Origin: Galeopterus variegatus
Taxonomy: Eukaryota
NCBI RefSeq assembly: GCF_000696425.1
Contig: NW_007726576.1
Location: 620,165 to 652,370, forward strand
Length of the DNA stretch: 32,206 bases
Direction: 5' to 3'
The notes below the pieces were generated by a model. The model was not told the DNA's origin and did not search any database. It worked only from the letters and a program-made list of their open reading frames with translations. The position numbers and the translations under genes are program-made. Positions 1-31,986 of the stretch are shown in pieces; the stretch's first letter is position 1; each line of letters begins with the position of its first letter.

Positions 1-80
1 TGTGGGATCCGAACCCGGGGCGGGAGCGCCGCCACACTCCCAAGCGGCGCACTGTAGCAGTGCGCCACTGGGCCAGCCCT
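1..80 (-). mobile_element. tRNA-derived SINE, family A: head fragment, truncated by the window edge
   Basis: Reverse complement matches the 5' head (gggccagcccagtggcgcactgctacagtgcgccgcttgggag...ggttcggatcccaca) shared by the full-length copies at 4838, 12577 and 28863. Confidence 0.7.
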
Positions 81-109: not shown

Positions 110-210
110 GGGCTGGCCAGTTAGCTCAGTTGGTTACAGTGCAGCCTTATAACCTCAAGATCACGTGTTTGGATCCCTGTACAGGCCTGCCACAAAACAA
201 ATACATAAAT
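110..210 (+). mobile_element. tRNA-derived SINE, family B (monomeric, tRNA-Ile-like), with A-rich tail
   Basis: gggctggccagttagctcagttggtta...ggatccctgtacaggcctgcca followed by an A-rich tail. Flanked by the direct repeat aaattgcattttc (96-109 and 211-223), which is a TSD. Confidence 0.75.
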
Positions 211-508
211 AAATTGCATTTTCCAATTATTCATAGCTAGTATATGTAAGTATAACTGATTTTTGTATTTTGACCTTGTATCAGCTTTTCTTTGTCAGTC
301 ATTTGTTAATTTTTTTCATTTTTAAAGACCTTTTTTGCTGGATATAGAATTCTTAGTTTACAGGCTTTTTCTTTTAGAAGTTTAGAGACATTATTCCATT
401 ATCTTCTATCATCTATTACATCCAATGTGAAGTAATATAAAATTCTTACAGATGTTCTCCTGAATGTAATGTGTTCTTTTTCTCTGGCTGCTTTTGAGAT
501 TTATCTTT

Positions 509-606
509 GGGGCGGGCTGGTTAGCTCACTCAGTAGGGTGTGGTGCCGATAATACCCAGGTCAAGGGTTTGGATCCTTGTACCAGCCAGTCACCAGAATA
601 AGAAAA
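509..606 (+). mobile_element. tRNA-derived SINE, family B
   Basis: gggcgggctggttagctcactcagtagggtgtggtgccgataatacccaggtcaagggtttggatcc... with tail accagaataagaaaag. TSD gatttatctttgggg on both sides (about 497-510 and 607-620). Confidence 0.75.
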
Positions 607-639: not shown

Positions 640-2180
640 GATCTACCTAAATGTAATTTTTTTGTGTGTGTGTTTATCCTGCTTGTAGTTCTGCTGAGTT
701 TCTTGGATCTGAAAGTTGATGTCTTTCACTAATTTTAGAAAAAAATTCAGTCATTATTTACTCAAATATTTTTCTGCCTATCTTTTCACTTTGGGGGCTC
801 CGATTACACAAATGTTAAGCCTTTGATATCATTCCACAGATGTTAAATCCTCTGTTCTTTCTTCATTCTATTTTTTTCTTTCTATGCTTTGGTTTGGATA
901 ATTTATGCTGTGTGCATTATATTATAATTTAAGTTAAATCATCTTTTTTCTTGTGTCCAGTTTGCTGTGAAGCCCCTTCAATGACCTTTTCATTGCAGAT
1001 AATGTATTTTCCAGTTCTAGAATTTTCACTTAGTTCTTATTTACAGTTTCCATCTGTTTGCTGAGATTCTCCCACATGTTCACTTATTTTATCCTTCTTT
1101 TCTGGTAAGTCCTTAACTGTATTCATAATAGCAGTTATAAAGTCCGTGTCTGCTAATTCCAACTTCTAGGTCATCTGTGGGTCACCAACTGCAGACCATT
1201 TTTTCCCCGTGATAATAAGTCATATTTTCCTGCTTCTTCATATGATTAAATTTCCATCCTGTACTGAACATTAAAGAGGACACCTTGTAGAGACTCTGGA
1301 TTATGCTCTCCTACTCTAAAGAGTTTTGTTCTGGTGGATCCATGAAGGCTGTTTCAGGCTTTGTTAGGGTGGGCCTATTTTGGTTTTTCCTTTTGTCCTC
1401 AGGTATTGTCTTTGGTCATAAGATATAGTCCTTATGACCCTCTCATGGTTTCAATGGAAAGACACTGATCAAGTCTAATTTGGTGTGACCCCAAACTCCA
1501 AGCTCTGTCACGCCAGCACTTGGCAGCAGCTGAAATCTCTACTCAGCTCTTTAGTTTCCCAGACGTTTCTTTTTTTCTGGATTTCTTCAAGTCACACACT
1601 GCCTATGTAGAGGTTAGGGGAGAGCCAAGGATCTGAGGAGAATTGGGGCAGATTTCAGAGCTCCGTCCTCTGTGGCTCCCTCCTTTCTTGGATTTTCACC
1701 TTTAATTTCCAGCCATTCTGGCAGCCTTGAACTCTGACCCTATGTCATCTCATTAAGGCTCCCTCTTCTAGTTCTACCCTCCTGTGTGCCTCATGAGCAG
1801 ACAGGTGCCTTTAGGTGAGAAGCTGGATAAATATGGAGCTCACCTAGTTTGCTTCCCTCTTTCAAAGATGGTGTCCCCTCCAGTCTCTGCCTCTTTTTGA
1901 TTGTTCTCCTGGTCTTCAAAGAGTGGTTTTTAAGTATTTTGTCCAGAGTCAATAACTGTTACTGGCAGGAGGTCTAGTCAGATACGAGCTCTTCTGTCAT
2001 TCCAGCAACAGGCACCCTTTCCTCACACGAGCTGCCACCACTCCACGGTGCAGGCCACGCGGCCTGCGTGTCTGCTCACCTGCCCAGCCCGCAACAGGAA
2101 ACCCTGACATTGTAGAGCTGATGGCTATCCTATTTATCCACGAACACTGCCAGTTGTTTAATAATGTTTATTTTATTTTA
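640..2180 (-). mobile_element. Degenerate older LINE-1 remnant (ORF1-like and 5'UTR-like sequence, reverse orientation)
   Basis: Minus-strand translation of about 640-1320 gives L1 ORF1p-like strings (IIQSEEQREKRMKK.., ..RSPQSEKIGRKIFE.IM.E.F..) with stops and frameshifts. Boundaries are approximate. Confidence 0.35.
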
Positions 2181-2326
2181 CTTTATTTATTTTTTTGTCC
2201 TTTTTTTGAGACCGGCCGCACCACGCTCAGCCAGTGAGCGCTGTGAGCGCACCGGTCATCCCTATATAGGATCCGAACCCGCGGCGGGAGCGCTGCACTC
2301 TCCCGAGTGCGCCACAGGCTCGGCCC
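2181..2326 (-). mobile_element. tRNA-derived SINE, family A' (short form)
   Basis: Reverse complement is gggccgagcctgtggcgcactcgggagagtgcagcgctcccgccgcgggttcggatcctatatagggatgaccggtgcgctcac..tggctgagcgtggtgcggccggtctcaaaaaaaggacaaaaaaa, the same unit as 31825-31986. TSD atgtttattttatttt at 2165-2180 and 2327-2342. Confidence 0.7.
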
Positions 2327-3310
2327 ATGTTTATTTTATTTTTAAGAATCTCTTATCCCAGGGCTAGTACTTGGCCTTCAAACCACTTGCTGACTTGAGG
2401 CGGCTCAGGAGCTCCTCATCCATCTCCTTCATTGTCATAACGAGAAATACATCCAGAGGCTGCACCGCTGGCTCCGGCAGAGGCTGGCTGGACGCTAGTC
2501 AAAGCTGTTTTCTTCTCCTGGTGCAGAGCTGAAGGTACGTTTGCCAGCCCCGTGCACCTCAGTGGGCTATGTGACTAGCTCCTGGCACATTTCCTCTCTT
2601 CCTCTTGTCTACCAGGTCAGTGATGCCAGGGTAATATTCTCCTTCTTCCCTTTCACCAGGTTAATTTTAAAACACTGAAGACAGTAGAGCCACAGTGTGG
2701 AAGGAGCAGGGTCTCTAAATGACTACCTGAAATAGAACTTTCTTGCTGACCAATATTTTACTGTGATATGGGCATAAAAGTAATCTTCAATTGTGCTAAA
2801 CTACTGAGATTCTAGTTTTTTTCTTTTTAACACCAGTTAGTGCTAATAAATTTGCACAGATAATATCCTAATTAGTGGTAAAGATATGACTGGAAACCAG
2901 TCTCCTACTTCCTTTGATGTTAACAAGTATAGTTCCATTCATATAGAACTTTCATAATTTAACGGACCATGCCTATGAGTGAATGGGAAAATAGTAACTT
3001 ACCTAGAGATCGAATGCCTTTTTGTTCAAGAAAGCTGTGTAAAACATTTGTATTAAGGTTTAATATAAAGCCCAGTTCTGGTGTAAGTTTCCAGAAGCCA
3101 TCCTGTGAAATTAAGAAAACAAATTTGTCACACTATTGAATTTCACCATCTAAGAAATTATGTGATATAAATAAAAGCTCTTCATAAGCTAGTGTCACAG
3201 TACTGCTTAGAATCTCGTAAATACTATGATCCCTATGTATCTGGTGGCATTCATAAAAAGTCTAGAAAGAGGCTTGTGTGTAGTGATTTTACAAAAATGG
3301 TACTATACAT

Positions 3311-3544
3311 TTTTTTTTCTTTTTCCTTTTTGTCTTTTTTACTGAACGGCAACAGATCGCAACCCTCAGTGTCGCGCCCGTACCGGACCGGGACCGGCAA
3401 CGGGATCGCAACCCTCGGTGTTGCACCTGCACCACGCTCAGCCAGTGAGTGGGAACTGGTCTCCACATGGGATCCGAACCCTCGGCGGGAGTGCCGCCAT
3501 GCTCCCACGCGGCGCACTCTCCAGTGCACCACTGGGCCAGCCCT
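3311..3544 (-). mobile_element. tRNA-derived SINE, family A (full length)
   Basis: Poly-T/CT tail at 3311-3350, then the reverse complement of the roughly 235-bp composite unit, ending ...cagtgcaccactgggccagccc. Probable TSD tacattttttt. Confidence 0.8.
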
Positions 3545-3594
3545 ACATTTTTTTCTTCTAGCAATGCTCTGAGCCAAAGTTTCTCAAATTTTTA

Positions 3595-3721
3595 TTTATT
3601 CATTTATTTATTTATTTGTATTTGTATTTTCTTCTGGCAGCTGGCTAGCACAAGGGTTTAACCCTGGATGTTGGTGTTATCAGCACCATGCTCTAACCAA
3701 CTGAGCTAACAGGCCAGGCCC
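3595..3721 (-). mobile_element. tRNA-derived SINE, family B, with (TTTATT)n-like tail
   Basis: Reverse complement of gggcctggcctgttagctcagttggttagagcatggtgctgataacaccaacatccagggttaaaccc. T-rich tail at 3595-3636. TSD tctcaaa(t/c)tttta at about 3582-3594 and 3722-3734. Confidence 0.65.
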
Positions 3722-4837: not shown

Positions 4838-5086
4838 GGGCCGGCCCGGTGGCGCACTGCTACAGTGCACCGCTTGGGAGCACGGTGGCACTCCCACCGA
4901 GGGTTCGGATCCCACATACAGACCGGTTCCCGCTCACTGGCTGAGCAAGGTGTGGGCGCAGCACTGAGGGTTGCGATCCCGTGGCCGGTCCCGGTCCGGT
5001 ACGGGCGCGACACTGAGGGTTGCGATCCGTTGCCGGACACGAAAAAAGACAAAAAGGAAAAGAAAACAAACAAACAAACAAAAAAA
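4838..5086 (+). mobile_element. tRNA-derived SINE, family A (full length, trimer-like composite)
   Basis: gggccggcccggtggcgcactgctacagtgcaccgcttgggagc...ggttcggatcccacatacagaccggttcccgctcactggctgag...gagggttgcgatcccgtggccggtcccggtccggtac...gagggttgcgatccgttgccggacacg, followed by an A-rich tail with (caaa)n. Perfect TSD atcattacag (4828-4837 and 5087-5096). Confidence 0.85.
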
Positions 5087-5550: not shown

Positions 5551-6615
5551 TTATGTGATCAGCCCGTTTGAATAGCACTGTTCTAAATTATGAAGCTCAC
5601 TAAGCACAGATTTAAGGGAAAGTAAGACAAATACCTCAGTTTGTAGATGGAAGAGCTCGGTCCAAGGCACAAGATTCCTCTGGCTCTCTTTGCAGACCAC
5701 ATCATCCTCAGCTTCCTGTGCCTGAACGCTTGCAGCAAAGTCACCTGTATGCTGGTGTCTCATCACTTTCTGTTGTATAAGACACTTGTACGCTGGTGTC
5801 TCACCACTGTCTCTTTCACAAGAGCTTTCATGACTTGGGGCCCACAAATCTTGGAGAGAATCTGGTGATGCAGTTTCGGCAGAAGTACTCAGAAGGGAAG
5901 AAGCCTGTGACTGACAGTGAGCAAGCGGAGGCAAGTCTACAGGCGGCTTGTAACTGGTGCTTGAAGTGGCTAGGAAGCTTTGCAAATGAAAAGGAGAGGA
6001 ACCAGAGGGAAGACAAAAACCTGAACCAGTGCTAAGAACTCTAGAAGGAGAGGAAAAATCTGGCTGGGAGAGAAAGACCTGCCTATGGGAGGCGTGAGCA
6101 TGTGGGCTGATCTGACAGTCTTGAGAAGGTTCAGGTGGATCTGACTGCTGGAAGCCCAAAAAGCCACCTGAAAAAGCACCGCCAGTGAGGGATCCAAAAG
6201 CTGGGTTCTGGGGAGGCAATGGGGAAGGAGATGTCGACCCACAGAGAATGCCAGGCCAACCGCCAGTCCAAAGGCCTTGGCCACGACGAGATAGGCCTAA
6301 CAGCTTGGGACGAGCCAGAGAACCACAAAGAAATCTCTGCGGAGGTAAGCGGGGAGAAGGGCAGGCAGTGCCAGGTAAGTGGGGAGGAGGGGGGGCACCT
6401 GCGCGGGGGGTTGGGGCAGCCAGGAAAGAGGGTACGCCAGAGGCTGCAGCAGCAGAAAGAAAGTTAGATACAGTCGTTGTCCGTGAAATACGTCTCATCA
6501 ACGATGTTTGTTTAAACAACTCCCTCTGACTTAAACCCAGTGGCTTTCCCACACCTTTACATTCAGAATTGGGTGTGGGAGGTTGGACTGCTGATTGCGA
6601 ATCAAAGCGAGCCAC
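5551..6615 (-). CDS. 354-aa ORF, Ser/Pro/Leu/Phe-rich and low-complexity. Candidate exon or compositional artefact; product unknown.
   Basis: Uninterrupted ATG-to-TAA frame of 1065 nt. It lies on the pyrimidine-rich strand of a purine-rich block. Third codon positions are T-rich rather than GC3-biased. I recognise no domain. No polyadenylation signal lies downstream. Confidence 0.25.
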   Translation of the reverse strand: MARFDSQSAVQPPTPNSECKGVGKPLGLSQRELFKQTSLMRRISRTTTVSNFLSAAAASGVPSFLAAPTPRAGAPPPPHLPGTACPSPRLPPQRFLCGSLARPKLLGLSRRGQGLWTGGWPGILCGSTSPSPLPPQNPAFGSLTGGAFSGGFLGFQQSDPPEPSQDCQISPHAHASHRQVFLSQPDFSSPSRVLSTGSGFCLPSGSSPFHLQSFLATSSTSYKPPVDLPPLAHCQSQASSLLSTSAETASPDSLQDLWAPSHESSCERDSGETPAYKCLIQQKVMRHQHTGDFAASVQAQEAEDDVVCKESQRNLVPWTELFHLQTEVFVLLSLKSVLSELHNLEQCYSNGLIT

Positions 6616-8107
6616 TTCACCATCTTCAGCAACTTCCAGCTCAGGTGACCTAACTCTTCTTCCAGTCAGACTTTTCTCTTTTTTTCTTTTTCTCTTAACA
6701 TGTTGCGATTCTTCATTCCGTTCAGAGGATGCTGAAAGAGGCTGCCCAGGAGAGAGAATTATTCATGTTGGGGGAAACCCAGAATAAAATGAACAGTCAA
6801 GAAAACATCTTTCTAGTAGCCGACTTGCCAGCAGTGAAGCAACTGCTCAACCTAGAGCACGATTCCCAGAATCAGGATCGTCAACACGGGCAGGGACACA
6901 GAAAACACCACTGGAGATAACTGAAGACCATTTAAGTACGAGGCCCTCCTTTGGTAGCTGCGGAAGCTGGAGAGCATACCAGCAATTGGTAAATTGAAAG
7001 GTCTTTCTGTTTTCATTCTTAGGGCCACGAAATTTTAAACACCCCTCATTTTACACATGAGAAAACCAAGGACCACAGAAACAACATGCTTAAAATTTTA
7101 CAATGAATAGTACCATAGTGTGTAAAACCGCTTTAAAATAAACTAATAATTTGAAGTACATTATTCCATTCTTCTACACTGCTTTTCAGCAATACTAAGA
7201 AATTGAGAAAATATTTAGAAATCTTCAAAAGCTTCAAAGTAACCAAATGAATATATCTTTACATCAGAATGTGAACAATATGTAAAACAAAAGGGAAAGA
7301 GGGGATGCTGTTACTGCTATTATTTGAATTTAAATGTGAAGAGTGCACCTTAAAAAGTTGCTAGTGAACCAAATCCAGTTTTATATGGATGACAAGTTTC
7401 CGAGATATTTTGGAAATACAGTTAGTCCCCCTTTATCCAAGACCCCCACTGGATGCCTGAAATCATGGATAGCCTGAACCCTACACATACAATATTAAGA
7501 AAATAAACGTTTCTGTTGCAATTTTTTTTCCCTAATTCATCATTGTCTTTGGATTTTATTTCTTGTATGTCTAAATCTCTTTCAGCTTTTGGAAATACCA
7601 TCCAAAGACCTCCTTGGTGTTAGCCTTTCAGTGCAGTTGTGGTTCACTGATGCCTTGCCTCATTGCACAAGAGGACAGAAGATGCTGGTTGTGCATTTTC
7701 ATTCACCCTGTCTTGTCGCTACCGTCATTCTATGGCAGCGACAGCTTCCCTTCTATCAATAAGAGGATGTGACCAGGACATCAGCCCAGACAAGGAGAGG
7801 AAGCATGGTTTTCTGAAGTTATCATCCCCACTCCCTGCCCTTTCTTTACAGACAACTACAAAATAAAACAAAAATACTGCACAAAGGGTTGAGGAAACAC
7901 ATTTTCTGTTTCTTTCTCTTTTTTCTATACCATCTCAAAACACACCAAACATGATTTTATGAACAAATGATATGTGCTTTTTTAAATCAACTAACATAGT
8001 CACTTTAAAAAAGGATCAAAGAAAATGAGTATTTCACACATTTATTTTTCCCCAAATTTCCCTACCCACAAACGTTTTTCCCTTAGAATTCTAAATTCTT
8101 TTTTTAG

Positions 8108-8178
8108 CAGCTGGCCCATATGAGAATCTGAACCCTTGACCTTGGTGTTACAACACTGCACTCTAACCAATTGAGCTA
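8108..8178 (-). mobile_element. tRNA-derived SINE, family B fragment (diverged at the 5' end)
   Basis: Reverse complement is ..ttagctcaattggttagagtgcagtgttgtaacaccaaggtcaagggttcagattctcatatgggccagctgc, with a T-rich tail upstream at about 8090-8107. Confidence 0.5.
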
Positions 8179-8929
8179 ATAAATTCTGGAAATTTTACTT
8201 CTCTAACCTGGATACCTGAGACTCTTATTAGCACTGTTTTATTCCTCTGCTTTTGAATATACCTTCTAATTTTTATTTAAGTCACATTTCTCGATATCTA
8301 TTATGTTTCTGGCTATAAAGGCCACAGTATAAAGCATTATAAACTTTAAGAAATATTGGTGGTAAATTTAGATTACTAGATAGGACTTTTATCACTAATT
8401 TCATAATGAACCTATTACATTACCTAAATGACTTTAGCTTCTTGTATGACAGCTTAGTTGTCCATGAATGACATATAACCACAGTTCTCTTTTTGTACTT
8501 TACAGCTGCATTTATATATAGTGAATGGCTCAGTAATGCAATGGCATTTCTATAAATGTGTGAATATTTCCCACCATCAGGGATACAACAATTTCTGCAT
8601 AGACAGGTAATAAGGCTGCTATTTTAGCAAAGGGTCACCTCACCATCAGGAAAATATAAAAGCACAATATCAATTTATATGGTAATTACCATTTACCTGT
8701 TTCATGTTGGCATCTGGCTGCTCCTCCTGCCAACTCAGGTATGGCAGAAAGTCTACATCTTCTGTGGCAATAAGTTCCGAAACATTTGGAGTATTAGGAA
8801 AAGATGACTCACTATCATCCTATATTGAATCACAACTGGGTTAAATCAAAGCAGACGTTATCGAATTAAATGATTATTACACATTCTAAAGCCCTGTGGA
8901 TGTTGGGTTTGGAATACACTTGTGTGTGA

Positions 8930-23648: not shown

Positions 23649-23879
23649 TTTTTTTTTTGTCTTTTGTCTTTTTCCGTGTCCGGCAACGGATCGCAACCCT
23701 CAGTGTTGCCCCCGTACCGGACCGAGGACCGGCAACGGGATCGCAACCCCCGGCGCTGCTCCCGCGCCTCGCTCAGCCAGTGAGTGGGAATCGGTCCGTA
23801 TGTGGGATCCGAACCCTCGGGCGGGAGCGCCACCGCGCTTCCCAAGCGGCGCACTATCCAGTGCGCCACCGGGCCGGCC
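23649..23879 (-). mobile_element. tRNA-derived SINE, family A (full length)
   Basis: Poly-T of 17 nt, then the reverse complement of the A unit. TSD ttgcagaattttt (23636-23648 and 23880-23892). Confidence 0.85.
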
Positions 23880-23910
23880 TTGCAGAATTTTTAAAAACAA
23901 AACAAAACAA

Positions 23911-24103
23911 GGCCGGCCTGTGGCTCACTTGGTAGAGTGCGGTGCTGATAACACCAAGGCCACGGGTTCGGATCCCATATAGGGATGGCTGGTTTGCTCA
24001 CTGGTTGAGCGTGGTGCTGACAACACCAAGCCAAGGATTGAGATCCCCTTATCGGTCATCTTTTACAAACAAAAACAAAAACAAAACAAAACAAAACAAA
24101 ACA
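23911..24103 (+). mobile_element. tRNA-derived SINE, family C (dimeric), with (AAAAC)n tail
   Basis: ggccggcctgtggctcacttggtagagtgcggtgctgataacaccaaggccacgggttcggatcccatatagggatggctggtttgctcactggttgagcgtggtgctgacaacaccaagccaaggattgagatcccctta, then (aaaac)n at 24065-24103. Confidence 0.75.
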
Positions 24104-25032
24104 GACCACCTGTGAAGAATGGGGATAAGCTTCTCAAAAGTGACCCTGGAAGCTGGAATACAAGGCCCTCAATATCCCGAGAGAAGACGCTCTCCCGCCT
24201 GCGATTCCAGGCCTCACCCAAGGACCAAGTGCAGCATGTAGAATAAAGACATTTCCAGACACTGCTGCCTGTACACTCTTACTCAGGAAGTTAATGAAGG
24301 CCACGCTCTGCCAAACTGAGGCAATAAAACAAGAAAAAGATAAAGATAAAAAGCCCCATGAAGGAGAGGAGCAAAGGGAGGCCTCAAGCCAGGCTGGAGT
24401 GGGAGACAGGAGGAGGAAGGAAATTAAATGGATTATCTGAAGCGCTCAACAGGATGAAAGTAGTATTGATGGGGGTTTTAACTGATGGGTTAGAGCTCTG
24501 AAGAAAAAACAGTCTAGAAATTAAGCAAATAAAAAAGGCAACTTTTTTTTTCAAGAAATATTATGTGAAGTGGTTAAAAAAAGGAAATACCATAATACTT
24601 TTCTTGACTCAGTGGTAAACTTTGTTCACATATTCACAATAATTTAAACACTACTGATTTAACTAAAAACTGTAAAAAACTCTTTTGGAATGAAGGGGAC
24701 AGGAAAAGTTGAGGGTGAGGTGGGTAGAGGGAGTAGAAGATAAATGCTCACCTACCATTACAGGAAGTTGAAAGATAATTTCAGAAACAGATGAATTAAG
24801 AAACAGCAGTAAAAATTTACTATCTAAAACTTTGGAGGCAGTACCAGAGAAACAGCTCAAATATTCAAAGTGTTTCACTGTCTCCGGAAGCTGGTCTGGG
24901 AGAGAGGCAAGGGTAGGTAGGACTGGATAGCTACTTCTTGTTAAAAGCTATTGGTAGCATTATTTAACCTTTTAAATCATATGCATGAATTGCTTTGATA
25001 AAATAAAATTAGTGTTAAAATAAGAGTTCTTG

Positions 25033-25157
25033 GGGCTGGCTGATTAGCTTAGTTGGTTAGAGTGTGGTGTTAGACCACCACCAAGGTCAAGGGTTTAGAT
25101 CCCTGCAGTGGCCAGCACCAAAAAATAAAGAAAAAGAAAGAAAGAAAAGAAAAAAGA
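25033..25157 (+). mobile_element. tRNA-derived SINE, family B, with (AAAG)n-like tail
   Basis: ggggctggctgattagcttagttggttagagtgtggtgttagaccaccaccaaggtcaagggtttagatccctgcagtggccagcacc, followed by aaaaaataaagaaaaagaaagaaagaaaag. Confidence 0.7.
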
Positions 25158-26648: not shown

Positions 26649-26801
26649 CGCGCCGGCGTGTGGCTCACTCGGTAGAGTGCGGTGCTGATAACACCAAGGC
26701 CACAGGTTCGGATCCCATATAGGGATGGCCGGTTCGCTCACTGGCTGAGCGTGGTGCTGACAACACCAAGTCGAGGGTTAAGATCCCTTTACCGGTCATC
26801 T

Positions 26802-26825
<24 letters not shown>
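26649..26825 (+). mobile_element. tRNA-derived SINE, family C (dimeric), inserted into ORF1 of L1 #1
   Basis: gcgccggcgtgtggctcactcggtagagtgcggtgctgataacaccaaggccacaggttcggatcccatatagggatggccggttcgctcactggctgagcgtggtgctgacaacaccaagtcgagggttaagatcccttta, followed by a22. Confidence 0.8.
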
Positions 26826-28305: not shown

Positions 28306-30057
28306 GTTCTGGTCAAGATGGAGGAATAGATAGTACCCAGCATCACTCTCTCCCAGAAGTCAAACAATTCACAAATATATAAAAAAGCAACAAAAGCCAA
28401 GCTGGGGCTGCTAGAGCTCAGGGGAAGAGGAGGAGAGACCTACGGAGTACATGAAGGTGGGAGAAGCCATGATGAAATTAAAAACTGCTCTGACCATTTT
28501 GTGCTGCAGCCGCTTTAAGGCTGGAACTGCTGAGCACACAGAGCAGGAGCTGGCAAAAGCTGCAGCTGTGCCCTTTGGATGGAGTTGCTTGGAGGCAGCA
28601 GGGAAGAAGAGGGCCTTGGTGGCACCAGCAAGACCACTAATGGGGTTCCCATGGACCCACATAGGAGGGAGGAGCCACAACAACTGAAGGAATGGAGCCA
28701 CTCAGAGGCCAGTGAGTTATCGCAAGGGACTGGTGCACAGCCCAGCCCATGGGAAATGTTTGCAGCACAGGCAGTGGGAGAGATGGGCCCTCTGGGGGAA
28801 CACTGGGGCACAGCAAGAACAGCTGATCTGCACCCCATTTAGCACAAGACCACTCAGAGGAGGGCCGGCCCGGTGGCGCACTGCTACAGTGCGCCGCTTG
28901 GGAGTGCGGTGGCGCTCCCGCCGAGGGTTCGGATCCCACATACAGACCGGTTCCCGCTCACTGGCTGAGCGAGGTGCGGGCGCAACACCGAGGGTTGCGA
29001 TCCCGTTGCCGGTCCGGGTCCGGTCCGGGCGGGACACTGAGGGTTGCGATCCGTTGCCGGACACGAAAAAAGACAAAAAGAAAAAAAAAAAAAAAAAAGA
29101 CCACTCAGAGGAGACTGGTCAGGAATATAGAATTACATGTGGTGCAGTTTGATGAAAAGACTGAAGCCCAGATCAGAGTTTCTACACAACCCAGGTGCAT
29201 CGAGTTTCTGGAGAGCTGGAAGTACCTATAAAGTCAAACATTATAACTTGTGCTGCACAAAAAGCCTTCCCTAGGGAAGCAGCAGCAAAGCAGCAATTTA
29301 GCTCAACCACAGAGCTCAAGTACTGGTCCCAGGAGGAAGTTCCCCCACTTCAGAATTAAGCAAAGGAAAAAACAATTAGTTTTAGCTCAGACACACTGCC
29401 AGTGCCTTGGGTCCGCCTGGGGACATGAGCCATGGAATTGGGGACTGGAGTCCCCTCCCAAAACTAGGCACACCATCAGCACCTCAGGGGCTACCAGCGG
29501 ACCCGAGGCAGAGAGTCAGGGACCAAACCCCCCTCCCATCAACCAGGCACACTGTGCCAGCACCAAGGAGCATGCCAAAAACATCACCTCCATGTGGGTG
29601 GCCCACCACAGCCACCACAATAACCATGGCTGCCGCAAAAGCGGCTAGATGGATGCCACAACCACCATGCAGATGGTCCGCCAGCCACTGGAGTATATTG
29701 ACACAGAGTTAGCAGCAGAGATAAAGAAAAGAAGATGTCTCTCTCCACAAAGCCCATTCCAGAGTGACAGAACCAGCATCTGCTCTATGATAATATTGGG
29801 GGACCTGATCACACCTCTCAGCAATGGACAGATCATCTAGGCAACAAATCAACAGAGTTACCATTATTCTTTCAGAAGGAGAGAAGAAATCAAGGGTAAT
29901 TAGAGGGGAGAGGAGGAAAGGACAGCAGGATGGGGTGACATTGGACAAGGGGCATAAAGAATAAGTAGGATTTGTAACAATATATATGCTAGTAATATTG
30001 ATTTGATCAACATATCTCAATGTTGAACCCCAGAAATATGTATAATCAAATTTGATT
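28306..30057 (+). mobile_element. Internally deleted LINE-1 (intact 5' terminus and 5'UTR joined to a short ORF2 fragment and a 3'-end-like segment), inserted in ORF2 of L1 #1
   Basis: Begins ggtcaagatggaggaatagatagtacccagcatcactctctccc, the same 5' terminus as L1 #2. Carries the ORF2 fragment IILGDLITPLSNGQII at 29785-29855. Flanked by a near-identical roughly 28-bp duplication caacaaatttttaaaaattaaaatcatttc (28275-28303 and 30058-30092). Confidence 0.5.
28863..29097 (+). mobile_element. tRNA-derived SINE, family A (full length), inserted in the 5'UTR of the deleted L1
   Basis: Full A unit with an A-rich tail ..gacaaaaagaaaaaaaaaaaaaaaaaa. Perfect 16-bp TSD agaccactcagaggag (28847-28862 and 29098-29113). 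Confidence 0.85.
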
Positions 30058-30139: not shown

Positions 30140-30235
30140 ACTTCCGGTCAAGATGGCGGAATAGACAGTCCCTAGCATCACTCTCTCCCACAAATCAACC
30201 AATTTAAACTATAAAAACATGACATAAAGTGCATA

Positions 30236-30960
30236 CGGAACGGGGAGACGTCCAGCGGGGGAGGCAGAAGCTCCGCGGAGACCACATGTCCTGCGGGGCC
30301 GCCATCGCACGATCCGGCAGATAGGCTTCACCGCCGCCACCCAACTCCATTCCCAGCCTGGCCCAGTGCGCACAGAGTGGGGAGACGTCAAGCAGGGGAG
30401 GCAGAGGCTCGGCAGAAACCACACACCCTGTGGGGCCACGACTGTGTGATCCAGCAGGTAGGCTTCACTGCAGGCACCCAGCACCATTCCCAGCCTAGCC
30501 TAGTACACACGGAGCAGGGAGACTTCCCACAGGGGAAGCGGGAACTCCATGGGGACCACACCGCTGCAGTGCGATCCAGCAGCCCAGCCCAATGCGTATG
30601 GAGCACAGAGACATCCAGCAGGGGAGACAGAAGCTCATAGAGTACATACACCCTGTGGGGGGACCGCCACCGTGCGATGCAGCAGCAGGTAGGCTTCACC
30701 GCCGCCACCCAGCTCCATCCCAAGCCCGGCCTAGCGCCATGAAGCAGGGAGACATCCAGCAGGGGAATGGGAAGCTCCTCAGAGACCACACGTTCTGCGG
30801 TGCCTCTGCGCATCCCAGCAGCCCGGCCCAGAGCACATGGAACAGGGAGAAGTCCAGCACAAGAGGTGGAAGCTCAGCAGAGAACACACACCCTGCGATA
30901 CCACCCCGTGACCCAGCAGCCCAGCCAAGTCCGAACTAACCAGAGAGGTGGCTCCCCGGA
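30236..30960 (+). repeat. Tandem monomers (about 6 units, roughly 145 bp and roughly 90 bp variants) forming the L1 #2 5'UTR
   Basis: Repeated unit gggagac(g/a)tccagc(a/g)gggga(g/a)gcagaagctc..gagaccacac..ctg(c/t)gggg..cgc..gatccagcag..aggcttcaccgccgccacccagctccatcccagcc..gcgc... Unit starts at about 30240, 30381, 30528, 30609, 30749 and 30846. Confidence 0.7.
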
Positions 30961-31107: not shown

Positions 31108-31560
31108 ATGAATAAACATCAAAGAAAAGATAACAGAAATACAAAAAATCAAGAAAATACACCACCAAAGGGTAATAACTCTCAAGCTCTAGAACCCATA
31201 GAACAAGAAGCCCTTGAAATGACTGACAAGGAATTTTGAGTGACAATTCTAAGGAAACTGAATGAGATACAAGAAAACTCAACTAGACATGATGATGAAA
31301 CGAGGAAAAGTATACAGGACCTGAAAGAAGAAATGTACAAGGAAATCAATGCCCTGAAAAAAAATGTAGCAGAACTTGCCAAACTGAAGAAGTTATTCAG
31401 CGAAATAAAAAACACAACAGAGAGTTTAACCAGCAGCCTTGCAGAAGTTGAAGAGAGAACCTCTGAACTTGAAGATGGGCTGTTTGAAATAACACAAGCA
31501 GACAAAAAAAAAGAAAAAAAAAAGAAAAAAGAATCAAAGGCATTGAAGAAAATCTGAGAG
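31108..31560 (+). pseudogene. L1 #2 ORF1 remnant (in-frame TGA at about 31236; A-tract expansion at about 31500)
   Basis: ORF1p coiled-coil sequence as above. Track ORF 31240-31557. Confidence 0.65.
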
Positions 31561-31824: not shown

Positions 31825-31986
31825 GGGCCGAGCCCGTGGCACACTCGGGAGAGTGCGACACTGGGAGCACAGTAGCGCTCCCGCCGCGGGTTCGGATCCT
31901 ACATGGGGATGACCGGTGCGCTCACAGTGCTCACTGGCTGAGGGCGGTGCAGCCGGTCTCAAAAAGGACAAAAAACAAAAAAAAAA
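31825..31986 (+). mobile_element. tRNA-derived SINE, family A' (short form), inserted in L1 #2 near the ORF1 C-terminus
   Basis: gggccgagcccgtggcacactcgggagagtgcgacactgggagcacagtagcgctcccgccgcgggttcggatcctacatggggatgaccggtgcgctcacagtgctcactggctgagggcggtgcagccggtctcaaaaaggacaaaaaacaaaaaaaaa. TSD aaagctacaaga (31813-31824 and 31984-31995). Confidence 0.8.

Follow-up and report, generated by a model that had tools for sequence, protein, structure and literature searches.

SINE copies and PARP4 exons in the window

The window, that is, the whole 32.2-kb stretch of DNA that was analysed, contains exons of PARP4 on the minus strand, a group of related short interspersed elements (SINEs) and decayed remnants of L1. 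Using tblastn with database fragments, we located PARP4 exons at about 19881-19657, 18674-18603, 17995-17780, 15698-15483, 14255-14090 and 13846-13718, and further ones at about 10591-10505, 9524-9387, 8801-8697, 5709-5635 and 3114-3001. The best named matches to the concatenated exons were a Panthera onca PARP4-like sequence and a Macaca mulatta PARP4 C-terminal fragment, with 60-90% identity per exon, values too low to place the sequence taxonomically. This exon map indicates that the SINEs are intronic. A Pfam analysis of the long open reading frames (ORFs) revealed a weak VWA match for a PARP4 exon, as well as L1 ORF1 domains; the L1 ORF1 remnants correspond to two decayed regions (Transposase_22, E 1e-12 to 1e-14).

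The SINE copies were found by blastn with the element at 2180-2326 and then with nhmmer profiles, both applied to the 32.2-kb window. In total, 18 related copies are dispersed on both strands, comprising six monomers (B), three dimers (C), two copies of a short form (A') and seven copies of a long form (A). TSD stands for target site duplication:

1..79, minus strand: A copy, unit 1 only, cut by the window edge
110..213, plus strand: B monomer, tRNA-Ile-like, TAT at the anticodon position
510..603, plus strand: B monomer, 13-bp TSD
2180..2326, minus strand: A' copy 1 (Ap1), composed of unit 1, a unit-2 5' half and an A-rich, structured tail; nhmmer E 1.5e-50
3311..3543, minus strand: A copy of the older subtype (A2), 7.5% non-CpG divergence, D arm and linker intermediate
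3590..3721, minus strand: B monomer, GAT at the anticodon position, Rfam tRNA 34.5 bits
4838..5085, plus strand: A copy, young subtype
8099..8179, minus strand: B monomer, 5'-truncated, old
10698..10867, minus strand: C dimer; unit 2 (10718-10789) with Rfam tRNA 46.7 bits and an ARAGORN call of tRNA-Val(GAC)
11266..11498, minus strand: A copy, young subtype, perfect 17-bp TSD
12576..12812, plus strand: A copy, young subtype
23244..23356, minus strand: B monomer, Rfam tRNA 28.8 bits
23644..23879, minus strand: A copy, older subtype (A6), facing the C dimer at 23911 head-to-head
23911..24103, plus strand: C dimer, Rfam tRNA 32.7 bits for unit 2 and 28.0 bits for unit 1
25031..25135, plus strand: B monomer
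26650..26825, plus strand: C dimer, inside decayed L1 ORF1
28862..29098, plus strand: A copy, young subtype, 18-bp TSD
31825..31986, plus strand: A' copy 2 (Ap2), 17-nt insert in unit 1, inside decayed L1 ORF1, 16-bp TSD with 1 mismatch

The elements are 80-250 bp long, the flanks of the copies are unrelated and Tandem Repeats Finder reported no arrays where the copies sit, in agreement with the formal SINEBase definition of a SINE as a short (<1 kb), interspersed, non-tandem repeat. Extrapolated from the 18 copies in 32 kb, the genome-wide copy number would be very high. All copies carry an A-rich tail, and TSDs of 8-18 bp were detected in 16 of the 17 copies that are not cut by the window edge. 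Several of the TSDs begin with an A run (AAAA) preceded by TT, which resembles the L1 endonuclease site TT/AAAA. The hallmarks of L1-type insertion (A-rich 3' tail, variable-length TSDs and an L1 endonuclease-like site) are all present, and two of the SINEs, one C dimer (26650) and one A' copy (31825), are themselves nested in decayed L1 ORF1.

Unit 1 displays an A-box-like motif, TGGCNCACTNGG, around position 12 and a B-box-like motif, GGTTCGGATCC, at position 48 or 65, with tRNA-like spacing. No T4 run was found within A, A' or B, whereas all three C dimers (10698-10867, 23911-24103 and 26650-26825) carry TCTTTT directly before the poly(A). The Pol III terminator of C, compared with the conserved structured tail without T4 of A and A', suggests that the source transcripts differed in the formation of their 3' ends. 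It is established that SINEs are transcribed by Pol III and inserted by L1-mediated target-primed reverse transcription. The boxes, TSDs, A tails and L1 remnants fit this scheme: Pol III would transcribe each source gene, with the boxes in unit 1 (A and B) as the promoter, and the RNA, ending in or acquiring an A-rich 3' end, would be inserted by the L1 ORF2 protein through target-primed reverse transcription, generating the flanking TSDs. Both the Pol III transcription and the L1 dependence of these particular elements are predicted from what is established for SINEs in general.

The original prediction had placed an element at the position of Ap1, and its coordinates proved to be right, since 2180-2326 on the minus strand corresponds to a full element between identical 16-bp direct repeats. 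Ap1 is a complete short SINE of 147 bp with an A-rich tail and a perfect 16-bp TSD. On the minus strand its sequence consists of the body GGGCCGAGCCTGTGGCGCACTCGGGAGAGTGCAGCGCTCCCGCCGCGGGTTCGGATCCTATATAGGGATGACCGGTGCGCTCACAGCGCTCACTGGCTGAGCGTGGTGCGGCCGGTCTC followed by the tail AAAAAAAGGACAAAAAAATAAATAAAGT, and its parts are as follows:

2327..2342, minus strand: 5' TSD, AAAATAAAATAAACAT, identical to the 3' TSD
2258..2326, minus strand: unit 1, homologous to C unit 1 (88%), with GCGCTCCCGCCG in place of the anticodon loop
2303..2314, minus strand: A-box-like motif TGGCGCACTCGG, element positions 13-24, putative promoter element
2269..2279, minus strand: B-box-like motif GGTTCGGATCC, element positions 48-58, putative promoter element
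2208..2257, minus strand: unit-2 remnant, comprising the acceptor 5' strand and a D arm with a 9-nt duplication (GCGCTCACA)
2180..2207, minus strand: structured A-rich tail TCAAAAAAAGGACAAAAAAATAAATAAAGT, sharing the motif AAAAAGGACAAAAAA with Ap2 and resembling the A-family tail
2164..2179, minus strand: 3' TSD, AAAATAAAATAAACAT, identical to the 5' TSD

Unit 1 of Ap1 lacks a 17-nt insert that is present in Ap2 and in all A copies. In unit 2 of A', GGTGCGG abuts the 3' acceptor CCGGTCTC with no intervening sequence; compared with C, about 31 nt extending from the anticodon loop to the T arm are gone, including the second B box. Directly upstream of Ap1, at 2343-2480 on the minus strand, a short ORF ends in ...MKEMDEELLSRLKSASGLKAKY* and is followed by AATAAA-like, A-rich sequence, and it is in the A-rich stretch after this ORF that Ap1 is inserted. 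The short ORF gave no match to the macaque PARP4 C-terminus.

Relationship of the units to tRNA-Ile and to each other

To compare the units with tRNAs, a mammalian-type tRNA-Ile(AAT) sequence printed in a preprint was taken as the reference and a tRNA-Leu from the same source as the control, with z scores calculated against shuffles. The B monomers are 78-85% identical to tRNA-Ile, C unit 1 78% and C unit 2 85% (z 14-27), while the tRNA-Leu control gave z <= 2.5 against every unit. These identities lie above the value of at least 60% to a tRNA (or 7SL or 5S) species that SINEBase gives for a SINE head. The gathering score of the Rfam tRNA model is 29. It was exceeded by the second units of the three C copies (46.7, 33.4 and 32.7 bits) and by a B monomer (34.5 bits), and narrowly missed by another B monomer (28.8 bits) and one C unit 1 (28.0 bits). 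The anticodon position is occupied by GAT in C unit 1 and in monomer B1, by TAT in monomer B3 and by GAC in C unit 2; GAC, the anticodon in the tRNA-Val call of ARAGORN on one C unit 2, is one transition from the Ile anticodon GAT. When paper texts were searched for sequence strings of the elements, only a tRNA-Ile sequence matched.

A and A' gave no match to the Rfam tRNA model at E <= 1. Their tRNA origin may be traced by a chain of homology through C, in which unit 1 of A and A' is linked to tRNA-Ile through C unit 1 (88% and 79%). The original prediction had regarded all four architectures as tRNA-derived; our comparison agrees and points specifically to a tRNA-Ile-like parent, in A and A' probably by way of this chain.

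We aligned six A, two A' and three C copies (11 sequences) with MAFFT. The three forms align colinearly, starting at the first base and continuing across unit 1 and the linker to the end of the 5' half of unit 2. The alignment contains 51 invariant columns. Many of these columns lie outside the A and B boxes, such as CTCACTGG.TGAG in the D arm of unit 2 and several positions of the linker, which indicates a specific homology of A, A' and C beyond the promoter boxes. The proposal that the modules share more than generic A and B boxes was therefore upheld by the alignment and by the low scores of the tRNA-Leu control.

C consists of unit 1, a palindromic linker (ATCCCATATAGGGAT), a cloverleaf-competent unit 2, TCTTTT and poly(A), and its two units are 80% identical. 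In unit 1 of A' the anticodon loop is deleted and GCGCTCCCGCCG is found instead, with C-like states in the D arm and linker. This derived segment in place of the anticodon loop is common to A and A', and unit 1 of Ap2 is 79% identical to that of A (z 17.5), in line with the original claim that the head of A recurs in A'. In the A form unit 2 is complete, with 86% identity to that of C, and is followed by a third unit without a D arm that is 87% identical to unit 2 of A. The 204 nt of the A body divide completely into units 1, 2 and 3 of 85, 68 and 51 nt. Additionally, A and A' have a structured proximal tail in common (GAAAAAAGACAAAAAGG in A and TCAAAAAGGACAAAAAA in A'). RNA folding showed that unit 1 of A forms two perfect GC hairpins of 8-9 bp (z -4.3), for example GGCGCACTG-CTA-CAGTGCGCC and GGGAGCGC-GGCG-GCGCTCCC at 4838-4922, and that C unit 2 keeps the cloverleaf. 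The A body (about 203 bp) contains 28 CpGs, and mismatches to the consensus amount to 5-18% at CpG sites, far more than at non-CpG sites (0-2% in young copies).

The four blocks that the original prediction named as shared do exist, but parts of its description have to be modified. It had assigned the 3' half of A' to the second unit of C; this half does match the linker and unit-2 5' half of C (82% over 40 nt), but it is not a feature of C alone, as it also matches the same region of A (92% over 37 nt). The first unit of C had been singled out as close to the B monomers. We found it to be 76-79% identical to B, compared with 68-81% for C unit 2, and C unit 2 is nearer to tRNA-Ile (85% versus 78%), so unit 1 has no special claim to be the B-like unit. 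The third unit of A is a copy of unit 2 without the D arm and not an independent module. The description of monomer (B), dimer (C) and trimer-like (A) forms was accurate, as was the absence of a non-tRNA body: every stretch of A, A' and C belongs to a tRNA-like unit, a 10-15-nt linker or an A-rich tail. According to the rules of SINEBase, internal deletions or duplications do not make a new family and the joining of near-complete SINEs does. This makes B a simple SINE, C a dimeric family and A' a deleted subfamily of the dimer; the placement of A as a trimeric derivative is borderline.

Proposed descent of the forms and alternative explanations

Taken together, these data make it very probable that the element at 2180-2326 arose by retroposition and belongs to a short subfamily, A', of a tRNA-Ile-derived SINE lineage whose members are made of tRNA-like units and an A-rich tail only. 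It is scarcely credible that the copies are tRNA genes, ordinary tRNA pseudogenes or products of local segmental duplication, as the ARAGORN call of tRNA-Val on one unit and the Rfam tRNA matches, with four units over the gathering score and two just under it, might by themselves have led one to think. The copies have diagnostic substitutions and indels in common that differ from tRNA-Ile, each has its own TSD and A-rich tail between unrelated flanks, and the dimer and trimer-like architectures recur with identical junctions. In SINEBase, simple SINEs are told from RNA pseudogenes by the substitutions and indels that they share from a source gene, and family-specific changes of this kind (the anticodon-loop replacement, the linker, the 9-nt duplication and the structured tail) were found here in every copy. 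The TSDs, the A-rich tails and the diagnostic changes in common therefore led us to reject tRNA genes and pseudogenes.

How the forms arose from each other was also considered. The original prediction saw in them different assortments of a few tRNA-derived modules. In its strict form, as a rival explanation, this would mean that A, A' and C are true chimeras, put together again and again from independent modules; template switching in the course of reverse transcription could have joined these, as could recombination or gene conversion among source genes. Dimers are by their very nature fusions of two units of monomer type, as the 80% identity of the C units illustrates, and the A' form combines a C-like D arm and linker with an A-like anticodon region. 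In the 5' part of unit 1, A' agrees with C at 27/31 positions and with A at 22-23/32, and in the linker and unit-2 5' half at 39/43 and 35/42, respectively, whereas in the anticodon region it agrees with A at 9/10 and with C at 4/10. Such a C-like/A-like/C-like pattern would, however, require two crossovers within about 80 nt, and an early branch point produces the same pattern without recombination. Moreover, the three complex forms are colinear with identical unit order and linker, and no module is newly placed or reoriented in any of the 18 copies. The differences among A, A' and C consist of an anticodon-loop deletion, a 17-nt insertion, a 9-nt duplication, an internal deletion of about 31 nt and a partial unit duplication.

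The older A copies also bear on this comparison. A2 and A6 show a non-CpG divergence of 7.5% and 6.2%, while the remaining A copies show 0-2%, and they retain C/A'-like states: CACTGGAGAGTGCG or CACTGGATAGTGCG is found where young A has CACTGCTACAGTGCG, and the linker of A2 is ATGTGGAGA. Because of these intermediate character states, stepwise descent is favoured over shuffling of modules, which we consider unlikely; the terms 'chimeric' and 'different assortments' are thus overstated, and clear module-joining is limited to the fusion of monomers into a dimer and the addition of the unit-2 copy. The simpler reading of the alignment is that A' would have branched off the A stem after the remodelling of the anticodon region and before the D-arm and linker changes specific to A. 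A single character conflicts with a clean tree: the 17-nt insert occurs in Ap2 and throughout the A copies but is missing from Ap1, a distribution that speaks for shuffling. A secondary deletion in Ap1, one of two A' copies, is plausible, since the junction seems by inspection to be flanked by AGT..AGT microhomology; exchange between source genes is the alternative.

The ranking by divergence, with B (8.5-23%) above C (3-5%) and old A, and these above young A, accompanies the order of events that we infer for stepwise descent. A tRNA-Ile-like monomer SINE (B) would have given rise to the dimer (C) by fusion of two monomer-type units. One dimer source gene would then have lost the anticodon loop of unit 1, which would have been remodelled into GC-rich hairpins. 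From that stem, A' would have originated through the deletion of about 31 nt of unit 2, between the anticodon loop and the T arm, together with the 9-nt duplication, and A would have originated from the same stem by keeping the full unit 2 and adding a third unit, the copy of unit 2 without the D arm.

Comparison with known SINE families and genomic setting

The CYN elements credited to Schmitz & Zischler 2003 and the t-SINEs credited to Piskurek et al. 2003 are reportedly tRNA-Ile-derived, have no tRNA-unrelated region and occur as monomers, dimers and trimers. In their organisation, the SINEs of the window probably match these dermopteran elements, and the link to Dermoptera that the original prediction put forward as a hypothesis is probably right. 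The likenesses to the reported organisation include the tRNA-Ile parent; the construction from tRNA-related units and an A-rich tail, with no tRNA-unrelated body; the coexistence of monomer B, dimer C and trimer-like A with its third unit without a D arm; the several subfamilies, which imply multiple source genes; and the high copy density, here 18 copies in 32 kb. At the level of organisation no difference from CYN / t-SINE is demonstrable. Two details, the internal deletion in unit 2 of the dimer that makes up A' and the missing D arm in the third unit of A, may or may not correspond to published subtypes. The designations 'CYN-I/II/III' were not found in the literature texts searched. A tRNA-derived SINE family (t-SINE / CYN) described in dermopterans appears among the reference titles of SINEBase.

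Simple tRNA-only SINEs in SINEBase include rodent ID, camelid vic-1 and armadillo DAS-I. The elements described here resemble them in having a head and a tail without a body, a presumed internal Pol III promoter and L1-type insertion hallmarks, and the B monomers fit this class; unlike them, the elements here are also dimeric and trimer-like, and they have a different parent tRNA and an independent origin. The parent of ID, vic-1 and DAS-I is tRNA-Ala. Dimeric SINEs are known to derive from fused monomers, as primate Alu does from FLAM/FRAM. As in Alu, two related monomers are joined head-to-tail, the left one carries the promoter, and small indels set later subfamilies apart. Alu is 7SL RNA-derived and has an A-rich linker, whereas the units here are tRNA-Ile-derived and separated by the short palindromic linker. 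Overall, the SINEs of the window are a known kind of element with ordinary behaviour.

It is improbable, although less so than the shuffling of modules, that they represent an independently evolved and possibly undescribed tRNA-Ile SINE family of a non-colugo mammal that merely resembles CYN / t-SINE. The name t-SINE is also used for cetaceans, as far as a reference title tells. On the other hand, the combination of a tRNA-Ile parent, monomer, dimer and trimer-like forms and no body corresponds to the definition reported for dermopteran CYN / t-SINE. In addition, no 7SL-derived SINE was detected in the 32 kb (Rfam, no SRP-family match at E <= 1), which argues against primates, rodents and tree shrews, and a megabat origin was rejected, as megabats reportedly have only low-copy, 5S-derived MEG SINEs. 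If the window is nevertheless from a non-colugo mammal, or if A and A' are undescribed, we might be dealing with a tRNA-only SINE lineage that went on amplifying after its promoter unit had lost the cloverleaf, with the anticodon loop deleted and the D and anticodon arms turned into the two GC hairpins, and in which units were gained and lost by template switching; the patchy distribution of the 17-nt insert hints at such switching, but we hold this scenario to be a long shot, a little more so even than shuffling.

As typical lineage-specific SINE insertions in PARP4 introns, the copies have little significance beyond annotation. They offer a compact example of the diversification of a tRNA-only SINE, from monomer to dimer and then to a deleted dimer and a trimer-like form, with intermediates visible. 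If the host is a colugo, the insertions would be useful as presence/absence markers for dermopteran phylogeny, and the order of the subfamilies (B oldest, then C, old A and young A) could serve as a relative clock.

Head-to-head inverted SINE pairs occur at 1-213, with A on the minus and B on the plus strand, and at 23644-24103, with A on the minus and C on the plus strand, 31 bp apart. These pairs are long palindromes in PARP4 introns. The only other Rfam matches at E <= 1 were sub-threshold ones to miRNA families, 'mir-3473' and 'mir-1972' at 57-133 and 23854-23935; they are due to the inverted pairs, and miRNA genes were rejected at these positions. The pairs could form double-stranded RNA in the PARP4 pre-mRNA; they show no sign of a selected function.

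We also observed a stop-free ORF of 354 aa at 5551-6615 on the minus strand, which includes the PARP4 exon at 5709-5635. For the other ~300 aa, neither a homologue in the protein collection nor a Pfam domain was found. The ORF represents a PARP4 exon with a lineage-specific extension or else an intronic chance ORF of unusual length. A peptide profile translated from the A family likewise gave no match in the protein collection. A tandem repeat with a 137-bp period (2.3 copies, 76% match) occupies 30228-30536 and may reach as far as ~30950. Decayed L1 ORF1 (31240-31557) lies some 700 bp downstream of this repeat, which looks like a monomer-type repeated L1 5'UTR or promoter. Finally, a (CA)18 microsatellite lies at 20741-20777.
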